Source: Calditrichales bacterium
Lineage (GTDB): Bacteria > Calditrichota > Calditrichia > Calditrichales > J004
Direction: 5' to 3'
NCBI GenBank assembly: GCA_965267575.1
Contig: OZ254086.1
Coordinates: 1,248,001-1,312,000, forward strand
Length of the DNA stretch: 64,000 nt
Shown: positions 37,579 through 61,856 of the stretch, piece after piece
Position numbering within the stretch: the first letter of the stretch is position 1
Layout: every line of letters begins with the position of its first letter
Position numbers and translations under genes: made by a program
Notes under the pieces: model-generated
Database searches by the model: none
Told to the model about the DNA's origin: nothing
Seen by the model: only the letters and a program-made list of their open reading frames with translations

Positions 37579-39930
37579 CTATTTCAAAACCATCATTTTA
37601 CGTACCTGTACTTTATTGCCCTGTACAAGCCTGTAAATATAAATACCGGTTGGCAACGAGCTGGCGTCAAAATGTGCCTGATGCACTCCGGCCGGGAGAT
37701 TGCCGTCAACAAGTGTTGCAACTTTCTGGCCCAATACGTTATAGACGATGAGACTCGTATAGCCAGCCCGTGCCACACTGAAATCAATGGTGGTAACGGG
37801 GTTGAACGGGTTGGGATAATTTTGACCCAGCTTAAAGCTGAGCGGTTTATTCTGATCTTCAAAAATTGAGGTAACTGTTCGTAGAGCCCATACTTCCGAG
37901 AAATTACTGCTGCCATATTCGTTGGAGGCCGATACGCGCCAGTAATATCGCGTGTAGTCATTAAGACCGGAGATGGTGATTGAAGTATCGGTGACCACCG
38001 TATCCAGAATTACGGTTCCCTCCTGGAAGAAGGAGCTTGTCCCCAGCTGATAGCGATAAACATCCGCGGAATCAGCAGGATACCACTCAAATGTCATCTC
38101 CAAAGGAATATTGACCGTGCCGCTGCGTGGGAAACTGAGTTCCGGGGCAACCGGAAAACCGGTTGTAAAGTTGTATGCCTGCGAGTAATCGCTGTGTCCG
38201 GCGGCGTTACCTGTTTTTGTTCGCCAGTAATAGGTGCTTAAGCCCTCCAGTCCTGTAACACTGGCTTGCGTATCCTGAACCGATTCCGTTAATACAATCG
38301 ACTCAAATTGATTGTCCGCAGCCACTTCAACCGTATATGCCCCGGCCTGGTCAACAACCGACCATGAAAGCATGGTCGTGTCCGATTGGTTTTTGGCCCC
38401 GTCAGCCGGCATAACAAGCGTCGGTTTTTCGGGCGGCGTTACGGTAATGACGTTGCTGGGAAAACTCTCGTTATAGTTACGGTCCAGCGCGCGCACCAAA
38501 AAATAGAATTGATCCTGATTTTCCTCAGGGATCGGCGGGCTGAAAGATCTTTTGTTTGTGACATCCAGGATGTATTGCGGCAATTCCAGGTCTTCGATCA
38601 ACGGGGCCTCTTCAAATCTATAAATCACATAGCGCGAAGCCGAATCCCCGTCGGTCGCCTGAAAAGGCAAATCCCACTGCAAGCTGAAAACACCGTTGCT
38701 TTCATTCTGCGCGTAGGCCAGGTTTTGCGGCTCATTGGGCGGCACAATATCCTTCCAGTCCATAACGGGCAGCAAAGCAGGGTAGCGATAATAATTGTTC
38801 TTAAGGCTATCGGTTACCCCTTTGGGGTTCTCAAAAAAGTTATCCGCGCGGAAGAAAACGCTGCCCAGGCTGTTTTCCGTTTCGCGGTTCAGGCGAATTT
38901 GACGAGGTATTTCATCGGAAGCCCAACCGGATTGGCGGTATAAGGCCTGGCCCGGGTAGAGATGGCGTCCGTTTATCCGGGCATCATCAGCCCACCAGGG
39001 CATCAGTTTGCCGTAGTCCTGTCCGCCGCCAAAAGGCCAGTATAGCTGTGGCGTCAGGTAATCCAGGTATTCTCTGTCCATCCATGTCGGCGCGTCACAA
39101 TAGATCACATTATAGGCATCCAAACCTGTTATGCCCGGCGGCACGCCGTTTTTCCAAATACCGAAAGGACTGATACCAAATTTTACATGCGGCTTAATGG
39201 CCTGAATACTGTCAGCCACCATGCCAACAAGGATATTTACGTTCTCGCGGCGCCATTCTCCGCGATTGGTAAAATCACCTTTATAAGCATCCCATGTTTC
39301 CTGGTCGTCGCTGTTGGTCGTTCCCTCATAAGGGTAGAAATAATCGTCAAAATGAACGCCATCGACATCATAGCGTCGTACGACATCCGTGATAATACCG
39401 GCGACATACTCGCGTACATCCGGAATGCCCGGATCAAGCATGATCAAGTCATTCTTTTTAAAATGCCACTCGGGATGTTCACTATAAATGTGATCGGGAG
39501 ATAGAGTATAGGTACCTTCTTCCCTGACCGATCGATAAGGATTAAACCAGGCATGAAGCTCCATGCCACGGGCATGTGCTTCTTCTATCGCAAATTCCAA
39601 CGGATCGTAATACGGTGAAGGCGGCGAGCCTTGCGAACCTGTAAGCCAGTATGACCACGGTTCATAAGGTGAGTCATAAAGCGCGTCGCATTCCGGCCGG
39701 ACCTGAAAGATTACCACGTTTATGCCAACTTCTTTCAATTCATCCAGCAGGGTTATCAATTCTTCTTTCTGTGCCGCGGTACCCGTAGTCGGGTTAGCCG
39801 GCCAGTCCAGATTGACAACGGTGGCTATCCATGCCGCGCGGAATTCGCGTTTTGGAGGGTCAGCCTGCGCAAAGCAGGAGGCCTGAAATCCAAAAAGCAA
39901 AAGCAAAAAAATGTATCCGATCCTATTCAT
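37579..39930 (-). CDS. glycoside hydrolase-like family 10 (GHL10/DUF187, YddW/DigH-like) with FN3-like repeats and T9SS type A CTD
   Basis: KREFRAAWIATVVNLDWP, HAWFNPYR, DGVHFDDYFYP, FGISPFGIW, PQLYW; two YYWR FN3-like repeats; QNYPNPFNP...KMMVLK. Confidence 0.9.
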   Translation of the reverse strand: MNRIGYIFLLLLFGFQASCFAQADPPKREFRAAWIATVVNLDWPANPTTGTAAQKEELITLLDELKEVGINVVIFQVRPECDALYDSPYEPWSYWLTGSQGSPPSPYYDPLEFAIEEAHARGMELHAWFNPYRSVREEGTYTLSPDHIYSEHPEWHFKKNDLIMLDPGIPDVREYVAGIITDVVRRYDVDGVHFDDYFYPYEGTTNSDDQETWDAYKGDFTNRGEWRRENVNILVGMVADSIQAIKPHVKFGISPFGIWKNGVPPGITGLDAYNVIYCDAPTWMDREYLDYLTPQLYWPFGGGQDYGKLMPWWADDARINGRHLYPGQALYRQSGWASDEIPRQIRLNRETENSLGSVFFRADNFFENPKGVTDSLKNNYYRYPALLPVMDWKDIVPPNEPQNLAYAQNESNGVFSLQWDLPFQATDGDSASRYVIYRFEEAPLIEDLELPQYILDVTNKRSFSPPIPEENQDQFYFLVRALDRNYNESFPSNVITVTPPEKPTLVMPADGAKNQSDTTMLSWSVVDQAGAYTVEVAADNQFESIVLTESVQDTQASVTGLEGLSTYYWRTKTGNAAGHSDYSQAYNFTTGFPVAPELSFPRSGTVNIPLEMTFEWYPADSADVYRYQLGTSSFFQEGTVILDTVVTDTSITISGLNDYTRYYWRVSASNEYGSSNFSEVWALRTVTSIFEDQNKPLSFKLGQNYPNPFNPVTTIDFSVARAGYTSLIVYNVLGQKVATLVDGNLPAGVHQAHFDASSLPTGIYIYRLVQGNKVQVRKMMVLK

Positions 39931-39947
39931 TACACATTCCTCAAGTT

Positions 39948-39980
39948 AAAAAAAGGGCACCCAGGTATGGATGCCCTTTT
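39948..39980 (-). terminator. intrinsic terminator/stabilising hairpin inside the operon
   Basis: Minus strand reads GGGCATCCA-tacc-TGGGTGCCC followed by T7. Confidence 0.78.
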
Positions 39981-39998
39981 AGACTTTTACATTAAATA

Positions 39999-42566
39999 TT
40001 ACTTGATCAAAGTCATTTTACGTGTATCCGTAAAATCTCCGGACTGCAGTTTATAAATATACATGCCGGAAGAAAGCTTGCTGGCGTCAAAAGAAATGCT
40101 GTAATCGCCTGCGGACAGGTTCTTATCAACAAGTGTCAATATTTCCTGACCTAGAACGTTATACACTTTCAGCACCGTTTTACCGCTCTTGGCAATCGTA
40201 AAGTCGATTGTCGTTGTCGGGTTGAACGGGTTAGGATAGTTCTGCTTCAGCGTATAATTTTCCGGAGTTACAACATTTTCATGACGTCTCAGCGACGTGA
40301 ATACACCGGTGTACTTATACACAACACCGTTGTTGAACGATCCGGTGTACATAACCGTACCATCGCTATTGAAAGCAACACCACGAGGTCCGTCGGTGTC
40401 ATCACCGTTATCCTGCGGCATCCATACGTAACCGTAGGTATTATCACGCGGATCAAACCATACTATAGCATTTACGTCCTGCGTACCGGCATATGCGTTA
40501 TCCTGGGATACCCAGAACTTGCCATCGGAACTGCGGTCTAATGTAACCGACTGTGCTTCGAAGATAGGTTTGCCGGTGTTGTCATTTCGGATACTGTCAG
40601 CCAACGGATAATTGATGAAGTCCGTGGATTCGTAAATATAAAGCGAGTGAACGCCTTCAGCCAGGTTACCCGGAATGAGCGTCAATCCGTCAGGCGAAAC
40701 ATAGATACCACGATGGAATCCACCTGCCAGAGGATCAAGCGTGATCGTTTGAGTTACGTCAAACGTAGCCGGATTAATAACGTTGATGAAGGGATTGCCG
40801 CCAAATACAACCGCACCTGTGTAGATAAATCCTTCATCGTCTACCATCGGTGCACCTTGCGACAGACCAAGCTCAACACGTGCCAGCGTACTACCGTCAC
40901 TCGGATCAAGCTTCAGTGTTGTACCGCCACTCTTGGTATAAATGATGTTACCATCATTGTCCGTTGCCAGTCCGCGGCAGCCTGTTAAGAAGACAGTCGA
41001 GTCCCCACCGCCGTCTGCTTCAACGGTAGTTGAGTCAAGGGTCATGAATTCCGAGCCATCTTCGTTATAAACAAAGACACCACCGGAGAATGTACCAATC
41101 CAAAGACGGTTATTACCGTCTACAGCAACACCGTGTACGGCACCCGTTGTATCCACAACCCCGTCATAGGAGTATTGGATTTGGTCAAGCTGCCATACGC
41201 CGGGGCTTACGTCCGGTTCTACATTAAGAACAACCAATGCCTTGGTTTCCGGACCAAAGCTTGTGGTGTACATTACTTCGGTACCCAGGTCATCATCAAT
41301 ATTAGCAAGGCCAATAACATTCCAGAAACCGCTAGGTGCATATTCGGAGTCAATAATTTCATGAGTCCAGTTATTAATGTTGCTTACGTCGTCCTGTGCG
41401 CCAGTGTACTCTAAGCGGAAAATGGCTGCGTTGGGCTCAGCGAAACGCGAACCTACGATATAGTCGGTACGGCCGTTAACATCAACATCACCGATAGAAC
41501 TACCGCCAAGACGAATGCTTTCACCGTAAGCGGAAAGGTCCGCCACTAGCGTGCCTTTAAGTGAATCGCCTTCGGCATCATACTCATATACATAAACGCC
41601 GGCAGGTGAATCGTCCTGAATAAAAGGCGTCCAATAAGTACCAAAGATAATTTCCGGCTGGGCGTTTCCATCAATATCATAAACCTCAACGCTATTGAAA
41701 GGACCACCACCACCTGCAACAGGCGGCAGATCCTCGAGCAACTCGTAAGTGTCAGCGGCCGTTGCGCGAACGCGCGTGGTAGTAATTTCGTCGAACAGGT
41801 AGATGGTGCCGTCAAGAACAGCAACATCCCACTTGTTTTCGGCACCGGAAATCGGGCCACCGGAAACAGTCAAACCATTGGATTCAACCGTCCAGGTTTC
41901 GCTGCCGTCGCCGGCATCCGGAACATCATCAACGGAGAGGACACCAAAATACCAGCCACTGGATGTACCGGTACGATCATTAAAGATCACTTCTTTTGTG
42001 CCGTCGCCATCAACGTCATTAACAACGAAATTAGTTGGGCGCAGGTTAAGATTGTCCTGATTGGTCATGGTGAATTGCGTATTTGGCAGAAAACCGCCAA
42101 AGCCATCGGAAACACCCATATCATCAGAACCGCCACCTACTGATTCAAAAATCACGATACGTGGAGGATTAGCTACACCGGCAAAATTATTAACCGGCCC
42201 CCAGATGATCTCTTCTTTACCGTCTTCATCAAGGTCATCAACGGTAAGGGCAGGCCAGGTGTTTTGGGCAATACCTGCGAGTTCGGTGCTCCAAACATTG
42301 TTCCAGCCACCAGCGCCGTCTTGTTCCAGCTTATATAAACGTGGAACGAGCTCATCCGGCGTATCATTAGAGTTGTCGTTGGCCATAAAAATTTCCAACA
42401 AGCCATCACCGTCGGTATCAGCACCGGCAACGATATTACCAATGCTTCCGACGTTTAGATTAAGATCAGGAATCTGAATAGAATCCTGACGGCTCCATTG
42501 TGCGAACAGTTGTGTTGCGCAAAACAGAACCACAAAAATGAACGTGGTATAACGAACGTGAGTCAT
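39999..42566 (-). CDS. secreted FG-GAP-like plus second beta-propeller protein with T9SS type A CTD
   Basis: Signal peptide; DTDGDG, DLDEDG, DVDGDG, DIDGN, DVDVNG motifs; NHL-like HGVAVDG, RGLATD, PRGVAFN; QNYPNPFNP...KMTLIK. Confidence 0.85.
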   Translation of the reverse strand: MTHVRYTTFIFVVLFCATQLFAQWSRQDSIQIPDLNLNVGSIGNIVAGADTDGDGLLEIFMANDNSNDTPDELVPRLYKLEQDGAGGWNNVWSTELAGIAQNTWPALTVDDLDEDGKEEIIWGPVNNFAGVANPPRIVIFESVGGGSDDMGVSDGFGGFLPNTQFTMTNQDNLNLRPTNFVVNDVDGDGTKEVIFNDRTGTSSGWYFGVLSVDDVPDAGDGSETWTVESNGLTVSGGPISGAENKWDVAVLDGTIYLFDEITTTRVRATAADTYELLEDLPPVAGGGGPFNSVEVYDIDGNAQPEIIFGTYWTPFIQDDSPAGVYVYEYDAEGDSLKGTLVADLSAYGESIRLGGSSIGDVDVNGRTDYIVGSRFAEPNAAIFRLEYTGAQDDVSNINNWTHEIIDSEYAPSGFWNVIGLANIDDDLGTEVMYTTSFGPETKALVVLNVEPDVSPGVWQLDQIQYSYDGVVDTTGAVHGVAVDGNNRLWIGTFSGGVFVYNEDGSEFMTLDSTTVEADGGGDSTVFLTGCRGLATDNDGNIIYTKSGGTTLKLDPSDGSTLARVELGLSQGAPMVDDEGFIYTGAVVFGGNPFINVINPATFDVTQTITLDPLAGGFHRGIYVSPDGLTLIPGNLAEGVHSLYIYESTDFINYPLADSIRNDNTGKPIFEAQSVTLDRSSDGKFWVSQDNAYAGTQDVNAIVWFDPRDNTYGYVWMPQDNGDDTDGPRGVAFNSDGTVMYTGSFNNGVVYKYTGVFTSLRRHENVVTPENYTLKQNYPNPFNPTTTIDFTIAKSGKTVLKVYNVLGQEILTLVDKNLSAGDYSISFDASKLSSGMYIYKLQSGDFTDTRKMTLIK

Positions 42567-42674: not shown

Positions 42675-43919
42675 TTATTGATCGCGCCCGTAATAAGGAG
42701 CTCCATTTTCGCGCATATCTATGCGTAAAACTTTTGAAGAGGAACTCGATGTTTTTTGGGCGGCATACAAATACAGGCCTGTTCCCCAATGAAAATCAAT
42801 TATTTCAGGCCCAATCAGTTCGGGATAATGTATGTCCAGTGTCTGGCTTGCTTCATCAAAGACGTATATAGCATCCGGCTCGGCAGATGTACCGATAAAA
42901 ATCCTTCCCTCTTCTGAGACAGTAATATCATTTATACCGGCTTGATTTAAAACAGAACTTTGTTCTGCAGTTAATAACGGAGAAATAGAGGACAGCCCTC
43001 CATTTCCATCTATGGTTCCCTTATATAATGCGACTGCATCTGAGGAATCCGGATGACGTAGCGTGAAATACAAATTGTTGTTAAAAACACGAAGACTCGA
43101 AACCGGCCTGTCAAAACTCTGGACAACAGTACTCGAAGAGCCATCCGGCATGATGGATGTTATGTTGCCGGCAGCAATTACTTGTGTGCCTTGTGTATAT
43201 GAGCTATCGATGGCCGTATAGATATAAAATGATCCATCAAAATCAAAATCACGGGGGATACCACGGAATGACGCGAAAGAGCTAAAACTGCCACTGGTAG
43301 TATCAAGTTTAACTATTTGACCATTTCTAATAGTAACAGACGCATAGAGTTCATCGTTTGGGCCTATTTGCATTGCTTCTACAAGCTCAAAGGCCATGGC
43401 ATCGTTAACAAGCTTAGTAGATTGTCCCGGTATGGTTTTTCTCAGTACCTTACCCTGAATATATTTAAATACTGTCCCCGCACGGTTCACGGCTACGGCC
43501 AGAACCACTTCTCCCGGAGCCAAGGTGCCGAATTCGGCGACTGCCGGATTGAGCTTATAAAAGGCAGAATCACTGTATAATTCCGAAGAACGTATGCCTA
43601 CTCTTACTCTAAACCTGTCTTTTGCTGTCTTTGGCGTTTTAACCGTAAGCTCGTTTTCGGAAGCTGATAGCACTTCGGCAACAATTTCATCAAAAACAAC
43701 AAAATTCTCCGCGGGTACAGGCGAAAAGCCATTGCCCGTAATGGTCAATGTGCCTACACCGGCGAGGGCACTGTCTTCAGGCAGAATATTGGTTATGACT
43801 GGTGCCGTTCCCGGGTCCCTGTCCGGATTGTATAAGCTGTCTGTTGGCTCTTCGCTGCAAGACAGGACCAATACAATCAGTGACAAAACTAATATATGCA
43901 TGGGGCGCATGCGTTTCAT
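42675..43919 (-). CDS. IPT/TIG domain plus beta-propeller lipoprotein
   Basis: Lipobox VLSC; PVITNILP...LTITGNGFS...N.V.F IPT/TIG pattern; propeller-like C-terminus ending GAPYYGR. Confidence 0.8.
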   Translation of the reverse strand: MKRMRPMHILVLSLIVLVLSCSEEPTDSLYNPDRDPGTAPVITNILPEDSALAGVGTLTITGNGFSPVPAENFVVFDEIVAEVLSASENELTVKTPKTAKDRFRVRVGIRSSELYSDSAFYKLNPAVAEFGTLAPGEVVLAVAVNRAGTVFKYIQGKVLRKTIPGQSTKLVNDAMAFELVEAMQIGPNDELYASVTIRNGQIVKLDTTSGSFSSFASFRGIPRDFDFDGSFYIYTAIDSSYTQGTQVIAAGNITSIMPDGSSSTVVQSFDRPVSSLRVFNNNLYFTLRHPDSSDAVALYKGTIDGNGGLSSISPLLTAEQSSVLNQAGINDITVSEEGRIFIGTSAEPDAIYVFDEASQTLDIHYPELIGPEIIDFHWGTGLYLYAAQKTSSSSSKVLRIDMRENGAPYYGRDQ

Positions 43920-43940: not shown

Positions 43941-44948
43941 TTAAAAAGAAAATCCAAAGGCAAAACGGTGAACATCGCCGAAAACACCAAAAGGTGTGTA
44001 GGCATAATCCACGTTCAGATCAAATCCTGTAACTTCCTGCCGCAGGCCGGCGCCAAAAGACATGCCTTCTTCATCTGTTGGCGAAGTGAGTCCGGCGCGC
44101 AATGAAACCTGCTTGAGAAATGTATACTCAAGACCCACATCAATCTGCTCATAGTAGTCTCTGGGGTGAGATGCATCTATCGCAAGCAATAAATCATGCC
44201 TGTCAGAATCGAGGTCCGTCAGATCAAGCATGTCCATGGCAACACCGATTTCAAATGTCAGCGGAAGTTCAAATGCCTCTTCGTAATACTGTACCTGCTG
44301 TGAAAAATTGCGCACGTACATACCAAACGTCAGGCTTTGATAACCGGTTTTATAAAGAATACCAAAATCGAAGGCTAAAACATTGGCATCAAATTCGCCC
44401 GTAACCACCTGCTGATCGGCATTTTTAAAATTGACCGCACCGCCTGTAAGGTTTTGATACACATATTTCATGTGACCGCCAATAGAGAAACGATCGGTAA
44501 GCGCCCGCGCATAGCTAAGACCAATGCTGTAGGCAATCGGAGAAAACTCGCCGGTGTCGAGAAAGCCTTGTTCGTTTTCGCTTTTGATTGATCCCTGAAA
44601 GCTGCCGTAGTCCGGAGCGATATAGGTAAGACCAAAAACGCCATACTGTCCACCGGAAGGGCTGTAGGAAAGTGTGGCGAACTGATATTGAAAATCAGCT
44701 ATCCAGTTTAGCTGACCAATGGTTGTTGAAACCATGGAAGGCAAGCGTGCCATACCTGCAGGGTTGTAGAGCATAGATGTGCTTCCGCCTTCAAGGGCAA
44801 CCGTGGCACGGCCAAGCGCGCTCATCCGCGCATCCAGCGACAGGCTTAAGAAAACCATGCCTGTTTGTGCCAGCTTTTGGCGTTCAGCACCAAAGCCGGA
44901 TGCTACAGTAAGCAAGATGACTATGAGAGTTAATAATTTGTTTTTCAT
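43941..44948 (-). CDS. PorV/PorQ family outer-membrane beta-barrel
   Basis: KLAQTGMVFLSLSLDARMSALG...YNPAG N-terminal motif; DYAYTPFG..HRF; terminal F. Confidence 0.85.
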   Translation of the reverse strand: MKNKLLTLIVILLTVASGFGAERQKLAQTGMVFLSLSLDARMSALGRATVALEGGSTSMLYNPAGMARLPSMVSTTIGQLNWIADFQYQFATLSYSPSGGQYGVFGLTYIAPDYGSFQGSIKSENEQGFLDTGEFSPIAYSIGLSYARALTDRFSIGGHMKYVYQNLTGGAVNFKNADQQVVTGEFDANVLAFDFGILYKTGYQSLTFGMYVRNFSQQVQYYEEAFELPLTFEIGVAMDMLDLTDLDSDRHDLLLAIDASHPRDYYEQIDVGLEYTFLKQVSLRAGLTSPTDEEGMSFGAGLRQEVTGFDLNVDYAYTPFGVFGDVHRFAFGFSF

Positions 44949-47057: not shown

Positions 47058-47064
47058 ACGTCCC

Positions 47065-52683: not shown

Positions 52684-52690
52684 TTCAATA

Positions 52691-53719
52691 TCAGAACCGT
52701 ATTGATAAGCTGAATTTTTGGGCGCTTTCCAGCCTGTTCCAGTCGGCATAAGCCCAATCTACACGCAAATGCGTCTGGCCCGCCAGGCGGATATTGGCCC
52801 CGAGACCATAAGTGAGGCCTTCTTCCGTTTCATCCTGAAACAGCGACTTATAGCCGGCCCGAAGAAAAACAAGCTCCTTCCAGCCATACTCGAATCCTGT
52901 ATTGACGGCTTCAAAGTTATCATTGGGCTGAATGGCGTCCAGGGCCAGTGTGAGGCGATTGTATTCTCCGATCTCAATATCTTTGGCAAAGCCAACCTGA
53001 AAACGCAGCGGCAGGTTGTAGGCCAGCATTTCATACTGAGCGTTTACAATTTCCACGTTTCCGATATTGTCCGGGTCAGGGTCGGTGGCAAACTTGCTGT
53101 CGCGACCTTCCAATTTCATTTTGTTGCCAAAATTGCTGATGGAAGCCCCAAGACGAATGCCCCAGAAAGGCGTCTCGAAAAGCGTACCCACATCGAGCGC
53201 AACGGAAGTGGCCGTCATGTGCCAGATGCGCTGGTAAATAAACTTCCCGGTAAAACCGATGGAAAATTTATCTGTTAGATTGCGGCTGTAAGCGAGGCCC
53301 GCGGCTATATCCTGCGTGTCAAAACGCTCGCCGGTGCCGTCCGGTTGCTGAACTGTCCTTACTTCCATTTCACCGGACTGGAAAGAGGCCACCATGGCGC
53401 CCAACGCTCCAAATGAACCGAGATTGAGCACGACCGCACCATAATCAAATGAAGTTCCGGCCAACCAATCAACATGTGTAAACATGGCTTCATTGGCATA
53501 AATGCGCGACAGGCCTGCGGGATTATGATGAATGGCGCTTACATCATTGGCCACGGAAGTGAAAGCTCCTCCCATACCAATAGAGCGCGCGCTGGGTCCG
53601 ATTTTTAAAAACTGGGCTACGGTAGTTCCGACCTTGGACACGCGGTCACCATCCTGAGCCAGGCCGGCGGAAAAACCGCAAAAATAAAATATAAATGTTA
53701 TTGCTAATAGCTTTTTCAT
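52691..53719 (-). CDS. PorV/PorQ family outer-membrane beta-barrel
   Basis: KVGTTVAQFLKIGPSARSIGMGGAF...HNPAGL; DWAY...QKFSLSIRF. Confidence 0.88.
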   Translation of the reverse strand: MKKLLAITFIFYFCGFSAGLAQDGDRVSKVGTTVAQFLKIGPSARSIGMGGAFTSVANDVSAIHHNPAGLSRIYANEAMFTHVDWLAGTSFDYGAVVLNLGSFGALGAMVASFQSGEMEVRTVQQPDGTGERFDTQDIAAGLAYSRNLTDKFSIGFTGKFIYQRIWHMTATSVALDVGTLFETPFWGIRLGASISNFGNKMKLEGRDSKFATDPDPDNIGNVEIVNAQYEMLAYNLPLRFQVGFAKDIEIGEYNRLTLALDAIQPNDNFEAVNTGFEYGWKELVFLRAGYKSLFQDETEEGLTYGLGANIRLAGQTHLRVDWAYADWNRLESAQKFSLSIRF

Positions 53720-53738: not shown

Positions 53739-56700
53739 TTATTTTATGATGGCGAACTTGCCGACAGTGGTACCAATGCCCGGGGCATCGACGTGATAAA
53801 AGTAGAGACCGTATGCCACCTCAATGTTATCACGTGTTAAAAGGTCCCAATAAACTTTGCCGTCATCTACGCTGCTGTCATGATGCAGGGTACGCACCAA
53901 TTCGCCAGCCGTCGTATAAATCCTGATTGTGCATTTCTGCGGCACTTTGTCAAAGTAAATGCGCCGGAAGCCACGCTCGTCCCTCGCTGTTGGATTGGCC
54001 GGCTCAATGACGTTTGTAGCCACATAAGGGTTTGGTACCACACGAATGTCATCGAGCTTATTGCGGGCCAGCGCTTTATCCTCGCGTGCGCCTTCCGTGG
54101 TAAAACGGAAAATATCACCGGGATTAAATGGCTTAAAGGTAGCCAGCAGGAAGATATCGCCGTTGGCCGGCGCATCACTCGTATCACGGGTTTGAGAAAC
54201 AAGCTGCCACACAGCGTTGCGTGTGTTGGTGCCATTCTCAAAGATGAAAATATCTTCACCCGGATCCCATGTGCCGTTGCGTGTAGCGGCTTTTTCCAGC
54301 ACAAAGAATTTCGATTTCGTGTTTTCCGTAACATTCCACAACTGGAAGTTAGTGGCAATGTCGTTTATTGATGAATCCTGCATATCCGTAAAAAACCTCA
54401 GCTCATAATCCGCGGGGTAAAAGCTGGCCGAATCACGCTCCAGAAGGGTAAATTCCATCTCTGTCTGTGCGCTGCTGTTCCAGCCGGTCAGGTCTTCATT
54501 AACGCGGAATTCTTCGTTTTTAATAACCAGCTGCATGCCATCAAAGATGGGGTTGGTTTCCTGCGAATCCACGGCAAAACTGCGGAAAATGGGGAAGTGC
54601 GTATACTCGGCCGTATAACGGGTGTCGTCCATCATGCCCGCGCCGGGTACGCTGTCCGGGTCGAAAACAGTGATCGTACCAAAGCGGGCGTCGAGATCGT
54701 AATCTACACCTTCCGTGAAAGTCTCCCCACTCTCAGAACGTACAACAAATGACTCAGGATTAACGAATTGCTTTTGCAATGAGACAGACCTGCCGAAAAA
54801 GGAGATGAACATCTCTTCAATTGGTTTTTGATCCTCTACGGTATACTCCAGACCCTCCGCAGTCGAATCAGCGAACTGGATCTCAAAGGTATTGTTATCC
54901 TCTACGGCAGATTCGTCCAGAATGCTGACAAATATGGTCCCCGTGGAGCGGCCGCCGGTTTCGTTTTGAATTCCGTCGGTCAGGCGTGGCGCTACGTAAC
55001 CTGCTGTTCTGCTCCGCGGAATCACAAGGGCGGTATTAACATCTGTTGAATAGGTGTTTGTCGTCGGGTCAAAAGTAACAATCTTGGCGCACTCCGATGG
55101 CGGAATACCCAGGCTGTCGCTGCCGTGATCATAGGAAACGATCGCATAAAAATATTGCTGACCATTGATCACATTGTTGGAATCAATAAAGGTATAGCGC
55201 AATCCTGTATTATTGCCAAGATTATAGGAAACACCGCGCCCCGTATATGGAACGTTACTGGGCCCGCTGTATTCGTTGTCCAGGTCAAAGCGGGCATCTA
55301 CCCCGGTTACCGTTTTAAGCGGCTCAAATAAAAATTTGGTACCGTTTATGTCTGTGATGGTTTGAATATCAAGAAAGCCGGGATCTGTGCTGCGGTAAAT
55401 GACGTATCCTTCGAAGTCATTTTCGCCGGAGACGGCGTCAAAGGAGGATTCCGCCACCTTATCCCAGTAAAGTGTCACTTTGCGGTCGCCGGGCACGGCG
55501 GTAAGGTTTGGCTTTGCGGGCGGTTTGGCAAACTGGTAACCGCTGTCATAAATGCGCTGCACCGTTTCAGCATTTTGAATCAGGTCATTACGGTCTTCCC
55601 CGATTATGAGGGCGATTGAAAAGCGCTTAATGGCTTCGCTTATCTGGTCATCCGGTGTCGTTTGGATCGATCTTAAAGTAAAGCGTCCGGAGCCATACAA
55701 AAACACATAATCGCCCGGATCGCGGGAGCCGGCAAGCGTGTCAAATTGGCCCGGCTGAATATAACGGCTCCACATCTCTTCATCGTCGCTAATCTGGAGA
55801 CCGGAGAACGACGGCTGAGCAAAACTTGTCAGACCGATCATGTCCGATTCATCGATGTCGGTAAATTCAAAATTGGGCTCACCGGGTTTGGTGATATCAA
55901 AAGGATCGCCGGCAGTGGGTACACCGTCACCTTCACCTTCATCAAGGGTATTGGGAACGCCGTCTATGCCCACGTCATCGGTTTCGGCGTTCCAGTCGCC
56001 ATCGTTGTCGATGCCGTCCGTCCAGCTTTCATCGATCATACCGTCTTTATCATTGTCGATACCGTCATTGGCCAGGCCCGGACTTTCCAAAAACTTATAG
56101 CCCATATAACCCGGAACACGGCCGGCGATATCGCTTCGTCCATCGTTATCCCAGGCAAAGGTCATATTAAGATCACGGTTAAAGTCAGCCAGGTCATCCT
56201 GCCAGTTATCCGGGCCGCCGATGTGCGGATCGCCCCACATACCAAAAATGACACGGTTCAGGTCGTAAGCGCCTTTGTTGCGGATTTTATAAATTAAAAA
56301 GATCGCGTCTTCAGCCAGGGGGTTGGACCACTGATACACGCGGCCTTCCACTTCAAGCCCCAGGCCCTTGCGCACTGAATCTCCGGGGTAGGGGTAATAC
56401 TCAAATTCGCGATTGTTCACATCATCCATAACAAAGAAAGATTCCTTGTCAGCATTGGTGGCGCCTTGCCCCAACGCACCGGGCCACACATAATCGCGCA
56501 GGTTTTCATTATACCAGGCGTCGGGCCATGTGTCGGGTTTGCCGTCGGCGTCCTGATCCGGCGCGTCATTGGTAGGCATGGTATTTTGCGTGCTGTTCAG
56601 ATAAACATTAATACCGTCGTCGCTAACCTCAAGCGGTTCCCAGCCCCAGCGCTCGGTAAAGTCTGGCGAGACTTCACCGCCATTGGAGATCAATCCATCG

Positions 56701-57116
56701 GAAATGGCATGTACCACCCAGGTGGAATCGTTCTTGCGAACAACATCAGGATGACTGCCGGGCGGCACGGGAATTTCAGACGCCACAAAGGGGCCGAACT
56801 CGTAACCGTAGCCAAGGCCTTCCCAGATAATGTCCGTGGTGCGGTTACCCGGTGCGGAAATGGAGCCGTAGTTCCAGATCTGCGTGGTAATCTTGTTACC
56901 GTTCATTATAACATCCTGGCGCAGGATGGGATTATCTGCCGCTGTTTTTTGGAAACGGTTATTATACCATTGCCACCAGGCGTCTACCTGCTCCGGCGAC
57001 CACTCTTTTTGCGGGCCAAAACGATAAACAGAATCCTGCTTGGATAGCTGCGCGGAAAGCGGTACCGCCAGACAAAACAACAATGTTACAAATACAATCT
57101 TTTTCATAATGTGCAT
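53739..57116 (-). CDS. large secreted protein with Asp-rich DGIDNDxDG repeats, FN3-like domain and variant CTD (VVPNPY...KFAIIK)
   Basis: Signal peptide; PPAKP, VTLYWD, FEGYVIYRS, YFYAIVSYD; C-terminal VVPNPY...FDKVPQKCTIRIYTTAGELV...WD...YGLYFY...GKFAIIK. Confidence 0.82.
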   Translation of the reverse strand: MHIMKKIVFVTLLFCLAVPLSAQLSKQDSVYRFGPQKEWSPEQVDAWWQWYNNRFQKTAADNPILRQDVIMNGNKITTQIWNYGSISAPGNRTTDIIWEGLGYGYEFGPFVASEIPVPPGSHPDVVRKNDSTWVVHAISDGLISNGGEVSPDFTERWGWEPLEVSDDGINVYLNSTQNTMPTNDAPDQDADGKPDTWPDAWYNENLRDYVWPGALGQGATNADKESFFVMDDVNNREFEYYPYPGDSVRKGLGLEVEGRVYQWSNPLAEDAIFLIYKIRNKGAYDLNRVIFGMWGDPHIGGPDNWQDDLADFNRDLNMTFAWDNDGRSDIAGRVPGYMGYKFLESPGLANDGIDNDKDGMIDESWTDGIDNDGDWNAETDDVGIDGVPNTLDEGEGDGVPTAGDPFDITKPGEPNFEFTDIDESDMIGLTSFAQPSFSGLQISDDEEMWSRYIQPGQFDTLAGSRDPGDYVFLYGSGRFTLRSIQTTPDDQISEAIKRFSIALIIGEDRNDLIQNAETVQRIYDSGYQFAKPPAKPNLTAVPGDRKVTLYWDKVAESSFDAVSGENDFEGYVIYRSTDPGFLDIQTITDINGTKFLFEPLKTVTGVDARFDLDNEYSGPSNVPYTGRGVSYNLGNNTGLRYTFIDSNNVINGQQYFYAIVSYDHGSDSLGIPPSECAKIVTFDPTTNTYSTDVNTALVIPRSRTAGYVAPRLTDGIQNETGGRSTGTIFVSILDESAVEDNNTFEIQFADSTAEGLEYTVEDQKPIEEMFISFFGRSVSLQKQFVNPESFVVRSESGETFTEGVDYDLDARFGTITVFDPDSVPGAGMMDDTRYTAEYTHFPIFRSFAVDSQETNPIFDGMQLVIKNEEFRVNEDLTGWNSSAQTEMEFTLLERDSASFYPADYELRFFTDMQDSSINDIATNFQLWNVTENTKSKFFVLEKAATRNGTWDPGEDIFIFENGTNTRNAVWQLVSQTRDTSDAPANGDIFLLATFKPFNPGDIFRFTTEGAREDKALARNKLDDIRVVPNPYVATNVIEPANPTARDERGFRRIYFDKVPQKCTIRIYTTAGELVRTLHHDSSVDDGKVYWDLLTRDNIEVAYGLYFYHVDAPGIGTTVGKFAIIK

Positions 57117-57134
57117 TTAATATGTCTCCCTCGC

Positions 57135-59870
57135 TTATAGGTCGATGCTCATGCCCACGCGTATCTCACGCGGTGCACGATAAAAGTCAGGACGTGTAAT
57201 GTATTCTTCGTAGGTATGCACGCCTGGCGTGTCATATTTTTCGATAAGTTCTTTTGGCTCATCGGCGCTGCGGTTGGCAAAAGTATAACCCGCGCGGCCC
57301 GTATCGTTAAATACGAAACGTTCGTTAAGCGAATCAAAAAGATTATAAATCTTTACGAAGAACTGATAGTTAATGTCTTTAAAGGCAAAATTATAAGACA
57401 TCCTTAAGTCTACGCCCTTGTATGTCGGTTTTCGGTCGGAGTTGGGTTCCGCGTCATACGTAGAGTTGAACAGAAAAGGTGAATAGGGGTAGCCCGTGCT
57501 CATTTGCCCGATCGCGCTAACCAGAAAACCCTGAAACGGCCGTACGGTCACCGAAGCATTCAGCACATGCTGCTGGTCCCAGTCCAGCGGAATAATTGTG
57601 CGGATTGCCGTTTGCCCAGACAGATTACTGAAATAAAAAGCCGACGGATCATTATCATTACCTTCTGCGACCTGGAACGTATAGTCAATATTGGCCGCAA
57701 CCGGGTCGCCGCCCATCATGCGCTTGGTGAAGGAGAGCGTAAGCCCCTTCACATTGGCATAATCCAGATTGCGATAGAGGCTGTAGTTACGGATATCACC
57801 GCTTAAGGCGCGGAATTGCAATGATTGCGTAGCCAGCAAATCGCGGATATCCTTGTAAAAACCGGTAACGTCAATGGCGTAGCGGTCGCTGATCTGCTGC
57901 TGCAGACCCATTTCATAAATAACCGTTTTTTGCGGATTCAGGTTGGCATTGCCAAAAGTAAACGATCCGCTCACGGGTACTTCAAATTCCGGGTTTACAT
58001 ATAAGTTGGCCAGAGAAGGCATCTGGAAAAAGTGGCCGTATGAAAAGTGAATAATGCCGGTCGCGGTTATCGGGAAGGAAGCACCCAAACGCGGGGCAAC
58101 CATATGTTTATGTTCCGCTTCCTTCAACTCGCCGTCCGGTTGCAATACATCTACCGCGTAATCGAAATCAGAGAAAAAGTAATCGTAACGAAGGCCCGCA
58201 TTGATAATAAAATCGTCGTACTCAATTTTATCCTGGATGTATGCCGACATCTGCCGCGGATAAGTTACATAAGCGTCGTGTGTCGGTGAATCCAGGCCGA
58301 GTACCGTAGGCTGTTTATAGCGATTGCGGTCATAGAGTATCGTGAAATTTTCGCGGTCCAGCTCGTAAAGGCGTGCTTCCAGTCCCGCCTTGACCAGGTG
58401 ACGGTTGTTAACCTGGCTCGTTATATCAAACTTGCCAAGGTATGTAAATGAGTTGGAATAAGAGTGCCCCATGGAAGTACCGCCAAAAAGAAACTGGACA
58501 CCCGCAGGGGAGCCCTGGACTTTGTCCGTGGGAACGTAGCGCGGATCACCTGGATCTTCATAAAGATAAGTGGTTGAGCGCTGAAAATTGACGGCTGCCT
58601 TCAGTTCATAAAACGTCTTTGGAGAAAGAGTATGGGTGAAGAGCAACGAGTTTTGTGCGCTCCAGGAACGGCTGGTCGGCAAACCTTCCGGGTTAAATTT
58701 CCACAGGTGTGAATAAGATTTGGAGCGACCCTGGTTGAAAAGTGACTGCGTGCGCAGAGTCATATTGGGCGTAAGCTTAAACTTCAACTTGCCCATCAGA
58801 TTCAGACCTTCGCTTGGATTCATCGGGACAATAGCATTATCACCGCCAAGTTCAATATACCACTCGTCATAGGTTCTCGTGATGGTAACGATTTGGGAAA
58901 AGTCATCTTTATAGCTGATTGTCTCTGTTTTCAAATCAAAATTTGCAGAGTCCGATGGCAGGTGCTCACGGCGGCCATAGAGATAACCCTCGCTCTTGGA
59001 ATAACGCCCGGAGAGGAAAAAAGTATGATCATTGCTGCCCAGGAATGAGAGCGGGCCGGAAAAGGTACCTTCTATATTGCGGTTGGCAACCGCGTCAATG
59101 TCATCAATGTTTAAGAAAATATCGTCGTGCGAACTGACAAAGTCGCCGCTGTAAAAACTTAAAAATGCTTTATATTTCTGGCCACCGTCTTTGGTCGTCA
59201 GGTTTACAATACCGCTCATGGCGTTACCGTATTCGGCGTTAAACGCGCCGCTCACCACAGACATCTCCTGGATGGCATTGTTGGCAACGGTTACAGACAA
59301 TCCGTTTGTGGAATACGGATTTGCCACAGAAACACCGTCAACCAGGTAGGCAATCTCGTTGGAGCGGCCACCCTTGATGTGCAGTTCGCCGCCGGCACCC
59401 TGGGTTACGCCGGCCTGAGTCAGCATAACATCCGTAAACGTTTCAACCGGAAGCGCCGCGATTTCTTCAGCGCTTGTTATTTTTTTGGATGCGGTAAGGT
59501 CCTTTTGTACAAGCGGCCTGTCCGCAACAACCGTGATCTGCTCCAGCTCGAGCGTCTCTTCACTCATCTGAAAGTTAATGATGCGTGATTGGTCGGCGTT
59601 GATAACCACGTTTTCTACGCGCTTCGTGGCATAGCCGATCATGCTACATTCCACGACATAAGTGCCGGGCTGAATATTCAGAACGAAGTACTCGCCGTTG
59701 GCATCACTTGAAGCGCCCAGTGATGTGCCCTCTATAATAATGTTGGCGCCCGGCAGTGGTTCGCCGCTGCTCTGGTCAATTACCGTTCCAAGCAACTTGC
59801 CGGTATTTCCGGCAAATGCCGAAGACCCTATCAGCAACAGAAATAAAATGGCTTGAAAAAAACGTACCAT
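57135..59870 (-). CDS. TonB-dependent receptor (carboxypeptidase-regulatory-like N-domain, plug, barrel)
   Basis: GKLLGTVIDQSSGEPLPGANI, HIKGGRSNEIAYLVDG, GAFNAEYGNAMSGIVNLTTKDG; APREIRVGMSIDL; GGAGG RBS. Confidence 0.93.
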   Translation of the reverse strand: MVRFFQAILFLLLIGSSAFAGNTGKLLGTVIDQSSGEPLPGANIIIEGTSLGASSDANGEYFVLNIQPGTYVVECSMIGYATKRVENVVINADQSRIINFQMSEETLELEQITVVADRPLVQKDLTASKKITSAEEIAALPVETFTDVMLTQAGVTQGAGGELHIKGGRSNEIAYLVDGVSVANPYSTNGLSVTVANNAIQEMSVVSGAFNAEYGNAMSGIVNLTTKDGGQKYKAFLSFYSGDFVSSHDDIFLNIDDIDAVANRNIEGTFSGPLSFLGSNDHTFFLSGRYSKSEGYLYGRREHLPSDSANFDLKTETISYKDDFSQIVTITRTYDEWYIELGGDNAIVPMNPSEGLNLMGKLKFKLTPNMTLRTQSLFNQGRSKSYSHLWKFNPEGLPTSRSWSAQNSLLFTHTLSPKTFYELKAAVNFQRSTTYLYEDPGDPRYVPTDKVQGSPAGVQFLFGGTSMGHSYSNSFTYLGKFDITSQVNNRHLVKAGLEARLYELDRENFTILYDRNRYKQPTVLGLDSPTHDAYVTYPRQMSAYIQDKIEYDDFIINAGLRYDYFFSDFDYAVDVLQPDGELKEAEHKHMVAPRLGASFPITATGIIHFSYGHFFQMPSLANLYVNPEFEVPVSGSFTFGNANLNPQKTVIYEMGLQQQISDRYAIDVTGFYKDIRDLLATQSLQFRALSGDIRNYSLYRNLDYANVKGLTLSFTKRMMGGDPVAANIDYTFQVAEGNDNDPSAFYFSNLSGQTAIRTIIPLDWDQQHVLNASVTVRPFQGFLVSAIGQMSTGYPYSPFLFNSTYDAEPNSDRKPTYKGVDLRMSYNFAFKDINYQFFVKIYNLFDSLNERFVFNDTGRAGYTFANRSADEPKELIEKYDTPGVHTYEEYITRPDFYRAPREIRVGMSIDL

Positions 59871-60032
59871 GTATCCTCCCAGGGAAATAAAACTTTGCCA
59901 GTCATGATAATGAATTTTTGGCAAATATCAATTTTTTGATTATACTCTTCAACGCCCAATATATAAAGCAAGGCTTTACAAATCACAATTAATTTACTTA
60001 CCAAACAAACCTAAACAAAAGGAGGAGAAAGT

Positions 60033-61856
60033 ATGCGTCGTTCGCTTACTGTATTCGCTATCCTCGTAACGATGGCCTTTATCAGCCAGGGATTTGCACA
60101 GGGAACTGAAGCTTCCCGCGTTGCAACTGCCTACAGCTTCCCACCGGCTGACACATTTTTCACCGGTCTGCAAAGTATCCGTGGTGTTAACGTAGCCGTC
60201 GATCCTTTCGGGGATGGAGTTAATCTTATTTCAGCCACAAACTATTTTACCGGTGGCGCGGTTCACGTTTTTGCCGCTGTCGGTATGGACTCCATCGAAC
60301 TGAAGTGGAGCTCCCCGCCCGGAGTCGGTGGCGGTGGCTCTACACCTCGTCACTCCGCTTTTGGAGATCTTGACAATGATGGGGTTGTTGAAATCATCTT
60401 CCAGAATTCGGACCGTGGTTTCTACATTTATGAGTGGGACGGGGTTCCCGGAAGCTATAACTTCGGTGATGCTCCTGCACAGATCATAGATGATACCTAT
60501 TTTCCCGCGACAAGCGGATATACGGAATGGTTCGACATTTCCGATGTTGACGGCGATGGTGCCAACGAGTTGATCACGGCTTATAATGCCGGTGGTTCTG
60601 TGAGCGACGGTCTGTTTGTTATCAGCGCCAACGGCGAATGGGAAACAGGAGATCCCGGTTTCTCAGGATTTAATGTTGAGCTGGAAGCACTGCGTTCGGA
60701 TCCCTTTTATGGAGCCCTTGGTTTTGGCGGAAGCCCCATGGGCGCCTGGGCAGCTCAGCTGGACGGTACAGGTAACGAAGAAGTCTTCTACACCAACTGG
60801 AATTTTAAGAATGTTACCGTTGTAAGAGCCACGGCCGCAGACACCTATGAAGCAGCCGATACGACAGGCGGTAATGGTAACCTCTTTATTACATGGCCCG
60901 ATGACAATACCGCGCTCTTTGGCGGCTTTGCCACAGATATCGATGGCGATGGTCGTGAAGAAGCCTATCTGTCGCAATTCGGTAGCGCTAATGCCGGCAA
61001 ACTGCACATGATCTATTTTGACGAAGGCTCTGACCTCAGCAAAATCGATTCCAGCAATCTGGCAACAATTGATGTTACCGACGTGCTGAACGGCAGTATT
61101 TTCGGACATGGTGTTGGTGACATTGACCAGGATGGACGTCCTAACATTTACATGGGCTTTGTTTACGGCAGCAACGTTGCTACCGCGGAATTCCAGGGTG
61201 GTGACAAGACAGATCCTGCCAACTGGACAACGGACGTACTTTACGAAGGCGAAGATGACATCTATACATCGGTAACCTATAGCGATAGCCTGGGCACAGT
61301 CGATACATCCTATGCCATTGACAACTCCTTTGTTGCCAAGCTGGGCGCCGGATATTTTGACCTGGACAATGACGGCTTTGAAGATATCATTCTGCCTTAC
61401 CAGGCTTTGAATGACAGCCTTGATGTTACCGAGCAAACCTGGGATGCCGATTCCGGAGCATACGTCGTAGATGCCCAGTATAAAGTGGTTAACCCCAAGC
61501 GCTGGTCACTGCGTGTACTGGAAGGCACCATTGGCAGCAGCATCGAAGCCAAAGACCTGACAGTTATTACACCGAATGATTACAAGCTTAAGCAAAACTA
61601 TCCCAATCCTTTCAACCCGGAAACAACGATTGAATTCGTAATGCCGGTACGTAAAAAGATCACCATGACGATCTACAATACCCGCGGCCAGAAGGTTAAG
61701 ACACTTCTTAAAGACGCGTCTTATCCGCAGGGTACGCACAGTGTTAAATGGGATGGTACAAATGAAGCCGGCCAGCAAGTGGCAACAGGCATGTATATCT
61801 ACGAGTTTAAGTTTGGTAACTTCACCAAAAGCAAGCGCATGATGCTTGTTAAGTAA
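60033..61856 (+). CDS. secreted FG-GAP-like beta-propeller protein with FlgD-Ig/T9SS CTD
   Basis: Signal peptide; DLDNDG, DVDGDG, DIDGDG, DIDQDG, DLDNDG; QNYPNPFNP...WDGTNEAGQQVATGMY...RMMLVK; strong AGGAGG RBS. Confidence 0.85.
   Translation: MRRSLTVFAILVTMAFISQGFAQGTEASRVATAYSFPPADTFFTGLQSIRGVNVAVDPFGDGVNLISATNYFTGGAVHVFAAVGMDSIELKWSSPPGVGGGGSTPRHSAFGDLDNDGVVEIIFQNSDRGFYIYEWDGVPGSYNFGDAPAQIIDDTYFPATSGYTEWFDISDVDGDGANELITAYNAGGSVSDGLFVISANGEWETGDPGFSGFNVELEALRSDPFYGALGFGGSPMGAWAAQLDGTGNEEVFYTNWNFKNVTVVRATAADTYEAADTTGGNGNLFITWPDDNTALFGGFATDIDGDGREEAYLSQFGSANAGKLHMIYFDEGSDLSKIDSSNLATIDVTDVLNGSIFGHGVGDIDQDGRPNIYMGFVYGSNVATAEFQGGDKTDPANWTTDVLYEGEDDIYTSVTYSDSLGTVDTSYAIDNSFVAKLGAGYFDLDNDGFEDIILPYQALNDSLDVTEQTWDADSGAYVVDAQYKVVNPKRWSLRVLEGTIGSSIEAKDLTVITPNDYKLKQNYPNPFNPETTIEFVMPVRKKITMTIYNTRGQKVKTLLKDASYPQGTHSVKWDGTNEAGQQVATGMYIYEFKFGNFTKSKRMMLVK

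Follow-up and report, generated by a model that had tools for sequence, protein, structure and literature searches.

A recurrent receptor–cargo–barrel cassette in a Calditrichales genome as a candidate SusD-independent nutrient-capture system coupled to type IX secretion

We analyzed a 64,000-nucleotide stretch of DNA from a Calditrichales bacterium (contig OZ254086.1 of assembly GCA_965267575.1, positions 1,248,001 to 1,312,000; hereafter the window), focusing on its positions 37579–61856. A preliminary description of this region had proposed two tandem modules, each consisting of a TonB-dependent receptor (TBDR), a secreted protein with a type IX secretion system (T9SS) C-terminal domain (CTD), and a dedicated PorV-like outer-membrane barrel. 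Our results favor, with a probability of about 0.58, the reading that each module is a copy of a conserved outer-membrane cassette of three genes for nutrient capture, in which the secreted protein (hereafter the cargo) would be exported by the T9SS, tethered to the barrel, and feed the receptor. The interpretation given in the preliminary description was partly supported overall.

Results

Two receptor–cargo–barrel modules in the window

On the minus strand, two gene runs of like logic occupied 43.9–59.9 kb, and all genes of both modules were confirmed, in the gene order originally reported to occur twice:

57135–59924, minus strand: TBDR 1 as the longest open reading frame (ORF), with a TTG start at 59924; the probable start is the ATG at 59870
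53739–57116, minus strand: cargo 1, 1125 aa, Sec-exported and non-lipoprotein, predicted to be all-beta and to combine a beta-supersandwich and fn3/Ig-like domains with a PorZ-like CTD
52691–53719, minus strand: barrel 1, 342 aa, PorV/PorQ family
48076–51237, minus strand: TBDR 2
47065–48060, minus strand: lipoprotein of 331 aa, between TBDR 2 and cargo 2
44964–47072, minus strand: cargo 2, 702 aa, exported, with a predicted beta-supersandwich, one fn3 domain, and a PorZ-like CTD
43941–44948, minus strand: barrel 2, 335 aa, PorV/PorQ family

Translation of TBDR 1 from the ATG at 59870 gave a normal signal peptide (MVRFFQAILFLLL...). The TBDRs of modules 1 and 2 were 27% identical over 830 columns (E 1e-71), the barrels 26% identical (E 6e-29), and the cargos 34% identical across their last ~100 residues (E 1e-11); the two modules are old paralogs. 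The additional lipoprotein of module 2 is probably surface-exposed because its lipobox Cys is followed by EETT, the rule behind this call being that of acidic residues after the lipoprotein Cys (PMC12578637, part of the text). A match of this lipoprotein to RskA_C (E 0.0087) was dismissed as sub-threshold.

Recurrence of the cassette within the genome

The genome is a single 4.73-Mb contig, in which genes outside the window were called with a simple ORF caller, not a gene finder. It contained ten cassettes, that is, ten barrels downstream of a receptor of the same clade, and the order TBDR, cargo, barrel was found in nine of them, with module 2 adding its lipoprotein gene. The intergenic gaps were short, as had been claimed for the window, ranging from 0 to 36 nt (with the lipoprotein gene in between in module 2) and having medians of 18 nt between TBDR and cargo and 15 nt between cargo and barrel over nine cassettes. 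Ten of the 19 PorV-like genes lay within three genes of one of the 25 TBDR-like genes, whereas with random placement the average was 0.73 and the highest count 5 (10,000 trials, 3872 genes). All ten cassettes were located on the minus strand of the contig. The similarity matrices of the three components correlated across the ten cassettes (Mantel rho 0.42–0.69).

The settings of the cassettes were as follows:

Cassette 1: a chondroitinase-B-type lyase (PL6) and heparinase II/III
Cassette 2: a subtilase and a GWxTD protein
Cassette 3: S51, M14, and M20 peptidases
Cassette 5: two GH16 enzymes, one GH3 enzyme, and carbohydrate-binding module (CBM) proteins
Cassette 8: GHL10 proteins
Cassette 9: without an obvious enzyme of degradation in its vicinity
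Cassette 10: RND efflux genes plus an NHL-repeat protein
Window cassettes: an alpha-amylase-family protein and a GHL10 protein

An alpha-amylase with CBM20 was also among the cassette-locus enzymes, many cassette neighbors bore ordinary T9SS type A CTDs, and SurA/peptidyl-prolyl isomerase (PPIase)-like genes were present near cassettes 4 and 5. The cassette loci have the layout of a polysaccharide utilization locus (PUL), with the triplet in the place of SusC/SusD. In the lyase locus, a 527-aa FadL/Toluene_X-like barrel (46.8 bits; L001:8813–10396, minus strand) directly followed the cassette barrel.

Conservation of the cassette in other genomes

Related loci were sought in one genome per species with four cargo-1-type paralogs, which gave at least 569 confirmed stretches of at least 600, and the best 80 loci were scanned with hidden Markov models made from the ten paralogs; taken together, the ten cargo paralogs shared no stretch with sufficient conservation for one joint locus search. 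Among the best 80 loci, a receptor was found upstream of the cargo in 70 of the 71 loci with room for it (in the exception the cargo ORF was split, and the receptor was still present), a barrel was found downstream in 73 of 73 loci with room, and the full order of receptor, cargo, and barrel was seen in all 67 loci with room on both sides. For the module-2 type, 30 loci of the window's phylum, own locus included, all had the barrel downstream of the cargo; a homolog of the 331-aa lipoprotein lay upstream of the cargo in 18 of them, a receptor lay directly upstream of the cargo in 10, and another receptor followed the barrel in 10, giving tandem cassettes as in the window. The conservation of the triplet order in relatives, on which the preliminary description depended, was borne out by these counts.

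By a hand count of record titles, the best 80 loci comprised 24 Ignavibacteria-type, 4 Melioribacter-type, 14 Rhodothermales-type, 8 Marinimicrobia, and 2 Kryptonia loci, one each from KSB1, Calditrichaeota, Candidatus Coneutiohabitans, and Chlorobiota, 12 from unspecific Bacteroidetes, Cytophagia, or Chitinophagaceae metagenome-assembled genomes (MAGs), 7 labeled plainly "bacterium," and 5 with implausible labels (an archaeon, Syntrophomonadaceae, and others). A full cassette was seen under the labels Methanobacteriota archaeon, Syntrophomonadaceae, Caldisericaceae, Victivallales, and Acidobacteriota (loci L039, L046, L017, L051, and L085), and these contigs likely represent binning or labeling errors.

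Within the window's phylum, the cargo-1 family occurred in 85 of 86 genomes, with several copies each, and the cargo-2 type in 48 of the 86 (E≤1e-100). For the phylum to which one Rhodothermales-labeled carrier belongs, an evenly drawn sample showed the cargo family in 92 of 201 genomes. The family is large and without a Pfam family of its own: a search of 1.84 billion cluster representatives with the cargo-1 profile gave 1,829 clusters (E≤1e-30), no Pfam family was common to the listed cargo relatives, and all listed relatives were annotated as "hypothetical protein" except one "fibronectin type III domain-containing protein." Among named relatives, the one closest to cargo 2 came from a Calditrichae MAG, at 62% identity.

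The cassette barrels form a separate group within the PorV/PorQ family

Both window barrels passed the NF033709 PorV_fam model (cut-off 90 bits), with 212.2 bits for barrel 1 and 184.9 bits for barrel 2, and reached neither PorV proper (NF033710, cut-off 250; 80.7 and 76.6 bits, respectively) nor PorQ proper (NF033711, cut-off 220; 91.7 and 82.5 bits). With the PorP/SprF model TIGR03519 (cut-off 90.55), barrel 2 scored 22.5 bits and barrel 1 had no match at E≤0.01, and neither barrel matched FadL/Toluene_X PF03349 (cut-off 29.7) at the same threshold; three paralogous cassette barrels scored 23–26 bits with PF03349, under its cut-off. When a profile of barrel-1 orthologs was compared with solved structures, the closest was PorV (6h3i_F, E 2.3e-23), and no FadL was retrieved. 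The barrels accordingly belong to the PorV/PorQ family rather than to FadL or PorP, as the preliminary description had assumed.

Elsewhere, the genome encoded a canonical PorV (256.2 bits) as well as a PorQ-like gene (215.8 bits), and the T9SS components SprA_N, PorU (845 bits), and PorZ (262.7 bits) were detected along with the canonical PorV, answering the earlier call for a check on sprA. SprA_N was also found in five of five diverse carrier genomes. Since the canonical PorV, PorQ-like, PorU, and PorZ genes lie elsewhere, the cassette barrels are extra paralogs. The genome had 17 matches above the PorV_fam cut-off, and an IQ-TREE phylogeny of 17 paralogs placed the ten cassette barrels in one group apart from the canonical PorV and the PorQ-like gene (UFBoot 86, SH-aLRT 98, 86% of 200 bootstrap trees), in agreement with FastTree. 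The term "dedicated" originally applied to these barrels is fair, because they are extra paralogs that form their own group.

Two further loci of the genome concerned the same families. A 5606-aa ORF with a CTD was directly followed by a 632-aa PorV-family protein (genome positions 1934064–1952792), possibly a further cargo–barrel pair of another kind. A second, partial PorU-like gene (405477–410812; 281.6 bits, model positions 6–780) adjoined another PorV-family barrel.

Predicted structures of the cargos

A Sec signal peptide was present, and a lipobox absent, in all ten cassette cargos. Cargo 1 had no Pfam match, and its sequence had no match among solved structures (best E 0.046); a phage tail-tube match at 23.9 bits (cut-off 60) was dismissed as sub-threshold. 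The AlphaFold2 models of cargo 1 (33-sequence alignment, pLDDT 81, pTM 0.75) and cargo 2 (32-sequence alignment, pLDDT 82.6, pTM 0.81) were almost all beta. At the domain level, VIA-align matched the N-terminal domain of cargo 1 to GH94/GH116-type N-terminal sandwiches with Z scores of 17–20, and that of cargo 2 to the same set of PDB entries with Z scores of 17–19, the matched N-terminal beta-supersandwiches being those of GH94 phosphorylases, GH116 glucosidases, cyclic glucan synthase, and dextran dextrinase. Both N-domains superposed with a root mean square deviation of 3.0–4.4 Å over about 245–290 residues, and galactose mutarotase came next for both (Z 12–14). Cargo 2 had an fn3 domain at residues 477–593 (Z 11.8), and cargo 1 had further beta domains. 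Whole-chain Foldseek searches returned mostly generic fn3/Ig chains, with PorZ (5m11) and PorU (6za2) among the matches, and it was the comparison of single domains alone that proved informative. On these models, the cargos are not SusD folds, in keeping with the preliminary description, and look like multidomain binding-type beta proteins rather than SusD-like caps. No catalytic domain was recognized among the ten cassette cargos.

Residues from about 350 to 430 of cargo 1 formed an Asp-rich, low-confidence insert in the supersandwich, with repeated DxDxDG-like motifs that probably bind calcium. This insert was conserved among cargo-1-type proteins only.

The cargo CTDs resemble that of PorZ

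In the last 115–128 residues, the best NCBIfam match was the C-terminal end of the PorZ model for ten of ten cassette cargos (20–40 bits; 22.9 bits for cargo 1 and 25.4 bits for cargo 2). The cassette CTDs matched the CTD parts of both the PorZ and the PorU models, and the structure models showed a beta-strand C-terminal domain. The type A CTD model TIGR04183 (cut-off 23) was passed by four of the ten, with 17.4 bits for cargo 2 and no match at E≤1 for cargo 1; no cassette cargo matched PF18962 (cut-off 27 bits), and the type B CTD model TIGR04131 matched one of ten at E 0.18. The three ordinary CTD proteins of the window, by comparison, scored 33–50 bits with TIGR04183 and had no PorZ-CTD match. 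The original description of the cargos as CTD-bearing held in that a PorZ-like CTD is present, and did not hold for the type A CTD models, which neither window cargo passed. The general features of T9SS cargo were found: the cargos have a Sec signal peptide and, at the C-terminus, a beta-sandwich sorting domain, and the genome contains core genes of the T9SS.

The CTDs of PorZ and PorU are retained, bound to PorQ and PorV, respectively, and cognate PorV-like barrels have been proposed to protect CTDs from cleavage (review PMC10202324, part of the text). By analogy, the PorZ-like CTDs strengthen the idea that the cassette barrel serves as an anchor, because the cassette CTDs resemble the uncleaved PorZ CTD more than ordinary type A CTDs.

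Elsewhere in the genome, a cargo-1-like paralog of 987 aa (2947633–2950596; phmmer E 1e-171) had an ordinary type A CTD (40.3 bits). It was situated between TamB-like, BamA/TamL-like, and BamD-like genes, with no TBDR or PorV-like barrel nearby.

Receptors and SusD content

Both window TBDRs contained CarboxypepD_reg (Pfam; 66–76 bits in TBDR 1 and 66–73 bits in TBDR 2), and both exceeded the cut-off of 23.9 bits for Plug PF07715, with 43.3 and 25.8 bits, respectively. Their barrel regions matched several NCBIfam TBDR models, all below cut-offs, and the barrel family PF00593 was matched by six of the eight other cassette TBDRs (67–108 bits). In a phmmer search of the whole genome, the ten cassette TBDRs matched TBDR 1 at E≤3.4e-67, and the next best TBDR followed at 9.7e-36; the clade defined by this score gap, not by a tree, consisted of ten TBDRs, every one of which belongs to a cassette. 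A quick TBDR tree with weak support did not cleanly resolve the cassette TBDRs from three others.

No SusD-family match was found at E≤0.01 with Pfam and NCBIfam among the 16 ORFs of the window. The earlier statement that no SusD/RagB-like gene is present holds for the window and fails for the genome, which had a single SusD_RagB match at position 4696593, beside another TBDR. The SusC/RagA model TIGR04056 (cut-off 368.25) gave 69.1 and 66.5 bits for the window TBDRs and covered model positions 2–208 only. The transporter set was embedded among enzymes, namely the alpha-amylase and GHL10 proteins in the window and lyases, peptidases, amylase/CBM20, GH16/GH3, and GHL10 proteins elsewhere. Of the three defining features of SusC/SusD systems tested, the cassette has the enzyme-locus context and lacks a SusD and a full-length SusC.

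We also compared SusD_RagB counts in 11 carriers and 5 non-carriers of the cassette. The counts were 1 in the window's genome, 1, 1, 2, 5, and 0 in five diverse carriers, and 6, 7, 0, 2, and 0 in five carriers from the sampled phylum, and 10, 8, 19, 35, and 10 in five similar-sized non-carriers of the sampled phylum (that of locus L018). That cassette carriers are poor in SusD is only a hint, because the sample is small and hand-picked and kin are not independent.

Neighboring genes in the window

The following genes surrounded the modules:

60033–61856, plus strand: FG-GAP protein of 607 aa with a type A CTD (TIGR04183, 33.3 bits), divergent from TBDR 1
51385–52749, minus strand: ORF of 454 aa 3' of barrel 1, probably a lipoprotein with its start at the ATG at 52683
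42675–43919, minus strand: TIG-domain lipoprotein of 414 aa 3' of barrel 2 (TIG, 38.8 bits), a recurrent neighbor
39999–42566, minus strand: FG-GAP protein of 855 aa with an ordinary type A CTD (Por_Secre_tail, 45.9 bits; TIGR04183, 49.9 bits), part of the surrounding locus
37579–39930, minus strand: GHL10 glycosyl-hydrolase-like protein of 783 aa with fn3 and an ordinary type A CTD (GHL10, 229.7 bits; TIGR04183, 44.6 bits)
33365–36850, minus strand: alpha-amylase-family protein of 1161 aa (alpha-amylase catalytic domain, 49.1 bits), just outside the region in focus

Homologs covering at least 70% of the 607-aa FG-GAP protein were found in 36 of the 80 related loci, in 33 of the 36 upstream of the cargo and on the cargo's strand; in the window the gene is inverted. 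Where listed, these homologs adjoined the TBDR on its upstream side, and the 607-aa FG-GAP protein is a conserved fourth neighbor of the module-1 type. A homolog of the 414-aa TIG lipoprotein was seen just past the barrel in 9 of the 30 module-2-type loci, within flanks of 1.5 kb. The membership of the 454-aa ORF in the cassette is doubtful: it had a homolog in only 1 of the 80 related loci, no Pfam match, and a weak match to an EpsD-type PPIase (E 0.0092).

A hairpin with a perfect 12-bp stem and a T run was located at 52635–52661 on the minus strand, 30 nt past the stop of barrel 1 and inside the opening, signal-peptide codons of the next ORF. The module-1 transcript may be terminated or attenuated by this hairpin. 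A scan for sigma-70 promoters was at chance level (21 found vs 24.4 expected). The alpha-amylase-family protein hints that the window locus deals with alpha-glucans. An ordinary fatty-acid beta-oxidation and electron-transfer flavoprotein cluster at 13400–22077 on the plus strand, containing a thiolase, a hydroxyacyl-CoA dehydrogenase/enoyl-CoA hydratase fusion, an acyl-CoA dehydrogenase, and electron-transfer flavoprotein beta and alpha subunits, was unrelated to the cassettes.

Discussion

Starting from the observed gene content, order, and conservation, the family placement and predicted fold class of the products, the locus context, and the presence of a T9SS, we propose a model for how the cassette might act. 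The T9SS would export the cargo, whose CTD would not be cut and would stay on its cognate barrel, as that of PorZ stays on PorQ and that of PorU on PorV, and the barrel would thereby keep the cargo tethered to the cell surface next to the receptor. In that position the cargo would capture, and perhaps trim, a polymer or oligomer and hand it on to the receptor, which would import it with TonB as the driving force. In SusD-poor lineages, the cassette would be a working counterpart of SusC/SusD, with its surface glycan-binding proteins, and there would be one diverged cassette per substrate locus. In a stricter version, the three proteins would form a stable machine, a SusD-independent "utilisome," in which the uncleaved CTD sits in a dedicated barrel docked on the TBDR and the cargo works as a hinged loader or lid. 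We regard this version as a tentative proposal that is probably not correct in full, and nothing at hand favors a cap over a tethered binding protein.

Several observations weigh against the nutrient-capture reading. The export route, the tethering, the contact with the receptor, and the substrates are all points that we infer from context and analogy. The beta-supersandwich is an accessory domain in the matched PDB enzymes, and likeness of fold shows no function. Sequence homology between cargos 1 and 2 was detectable in the CTD alone (hhalign 98%), and the body plan that they appear to share comes from two predicted folds. Neither window TBDR matched the PF00593 barrel at E≤0.01. In cassette 10, the barrel directly follows the TBDR and a cargo-like gene lies three genes upstream, and therefore the barrel may belong with the receptor and not with the cargo. 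Three tandem cargo-like proteins of 949, 669, and 673 aa, at 792–800 kb of the genome, had PorZ-like CTDs (41–50 bits) without a barrel or TBDR nearby, which means that a PorZ-like CTD does not require an adjacent barrel. Glycan binding cannot be a general function, because two cassettes lie in peptidase loci. Finally, the co-divergence of the three components came mostly from four close cassettes (4, 5, 7, and 9), the other six giving rho values of 0.11–0.41 (15 pairs); with the four set aside, there was no specific signal of co-evolution between CTD and barrel, their correlation being no stronger than that of other parts. The co-divergence thus shows en-bloc duplication of a subgroup and says nothing on contact between CTD and barrel. 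The neighbors of the three tandem proteins (genome 791500–803000) included EutJ and an aldehyde dehydrogenase.

Other explanations of the same gene order differ in what they make of the barrel and of its link to the receptor. The barrel could be a dedicated T9SS shuttle or specificity adaptor at the SprA translocon, with PorU cleaving the CTD, the cargo being released or linked to lipopolysaccharide, and the receptor being connected by co-regulation. Canonical PorV does act as a shuttle (PMC10202324, part of the text), the cassette barrels are relatives of PorV, PorU is present in the genome, and four of ten cassette CTDs still pass the type A model. We nevertheless consider this explanation rather unlikely: the retained CTD of PorZ was the best match for all ten cassette CTDs, a canonical PorV is already encoded in the genome, and one barrel per cargo, kept next to it in 73 of 73 loci and, for the module-2 type, in 30 of 30, exceeds the need of a general shuttle. 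Alternatively, the three genes could be co-expressed parts of a degradation locus that are not physically coupled, with the cargo acting as a secreted enzyme or adhesin, the receptor importing products, and the barrel serving a separate transport. The occurrence of the supersandwich in many glycan-active enzymes and of many T9SS-secreted enzymes among the neighbors would fit such a locus, whereas no catalytic domain was recognized in any of the ten cargos, and the fixed order and the gaps of 0–36 nt are kept across several phyla while the flanking enzyme genes differ, which points to a unit selected as such. On balance, the absence of physical coupling appears unlikely.

A third possibility connects the cassette with outer-membrane assembly. 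BamG of the Bacteroidota beta-barrel assembly machinery (BAM) is a 14-strand FadL homolog bound to BamA and a surface protein (PMC12578637, part of the text), and the cargo and barrel could, like BamG and surface lipoproteins in that machinery, build or cap outer-membrane barrels with no substrate capture. The setting of the 987-aa cargo-1-like paralog among TamB-like, BamA/TamL-like, and BamD-like genes and the SurA/PPIase-like genes beside cassettes 4 and 5 agree with such a role. That paralog, however, has an ordinary CTD and no adjoining barrel, the BamG model matched barrel 2 at E 0.0073 only and barrel 1 not at all, and ten diverged cassettes in different enzyme loci suit substrate specificity better than general assembly. 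A role in barrel assembly is, in our view, very unlikely.

If the nutrient-capture reading is true, it would represent a second, SusD-independent solution for feeding a TonB-dependent transporter. In the stricter version, the "utilisome" would couple a secretion system to nutrient import and mark the polymer loci of the carrier lineages as SusC/SusD marks PULs. With the nutrient-capture reading, cognate PorV-like barrels would be a general means of keeping T9SS cargo surface-bound, here for nutrient capture and not for a secretion machine. PUL prediction misses SusD-poor lineages because it relies on SusC/SusD pairs, and a conserved triplet tagging substrate loci could serve as a marker with which to find and count polymer-utilization loci in Ignavibacteria, Rhodothermales, Marinimicrobia, Calditrichota, KSB1, and Kryptonia, lineages that matter in sediments, hot springs, and the dark ocean. 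The cassette should interest those who study the T9SS, TonB-dependent transport, and the breakdown of polymers in the FCB group.

Among known systems, the cassette resembles the SusC/SusD (RagA/RagB) PULs in that a CarboxypepD_reg-type TBDR is followed at once by the gene for a candidate surface partner, and in that many diverged copies occur per genome, in different enzyme loci. It differs from them in that the partner is predicted to be all-beta, with a signal peptide and a CTD, and is not a helical lipoprotein of the SusD family, that the cassette TBDRs match the SusC model only in their first 130–210 residues, and that a third gene, for a PorV-like barrel, is always present. TBDRs also work without SusD in the CUT loci of Xanthomonas, which are TBDR-centered carbohydrate loci where the receptor works with locus-encoded enzymes, and in TbpA/TbpB-type pairs, where it works with a surface-exposed, beta-rich binding partner. 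To our knowledge, the partners in these systems are lipoproteins or absent, and none is exported by a T9SS or paired with a PorV-like barrel.

With respect to the barrel, the cassette resembles the PorZ–PorQ and PorU–PorV pairs in that a CTD protein is paired with a PorV/PorQ-family barrel and the CTD best matches that of PorZ; the cassette barrels also have somewhat higher scores with the PorQ model than with that of PorV. Unlike these pairs, the cassette pairs are multi-copy, lie side by side, and are joined to a TBDR, in a genome that has its own PorZ, PorU, PorV, and PorQ-like genes, and the bodies of the cassette cargos are unrelated to PorZ. The systems of type B CTD proteins with PorP/SprF barrels (e.g. 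SprB–SprF) likewise have one dedicated barrel gene beside each cargo gene, but the cassette barrels belong to the PorV/PorQ and not the PorP/SprF family, and the cassette CTDs are not of type B. We know of no TBDR in the SprB–SprF system. For type B cargo with a cognate barrel, the barrel has been proposed as a surface anchor (PMC10202324 and PMC11205867, part of each text).

We found no description of the triplet in the full-text literature, with subscription journals and supplements, which may hold one, outside its scope, nor in the available parts of the Caldithrix abyssi (PMC5317091) and Melioribacter roseus (PMC3534657) genome papers, of the T9SS reviews PMC11205867 and PMC10202324, and of PMC12578637. 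The cassette is a conserved and apparently undescribed variant that joins the logic of SusC/SusD with that of PorZ–PorQ and of type B CTD–PorP/SprF systems.

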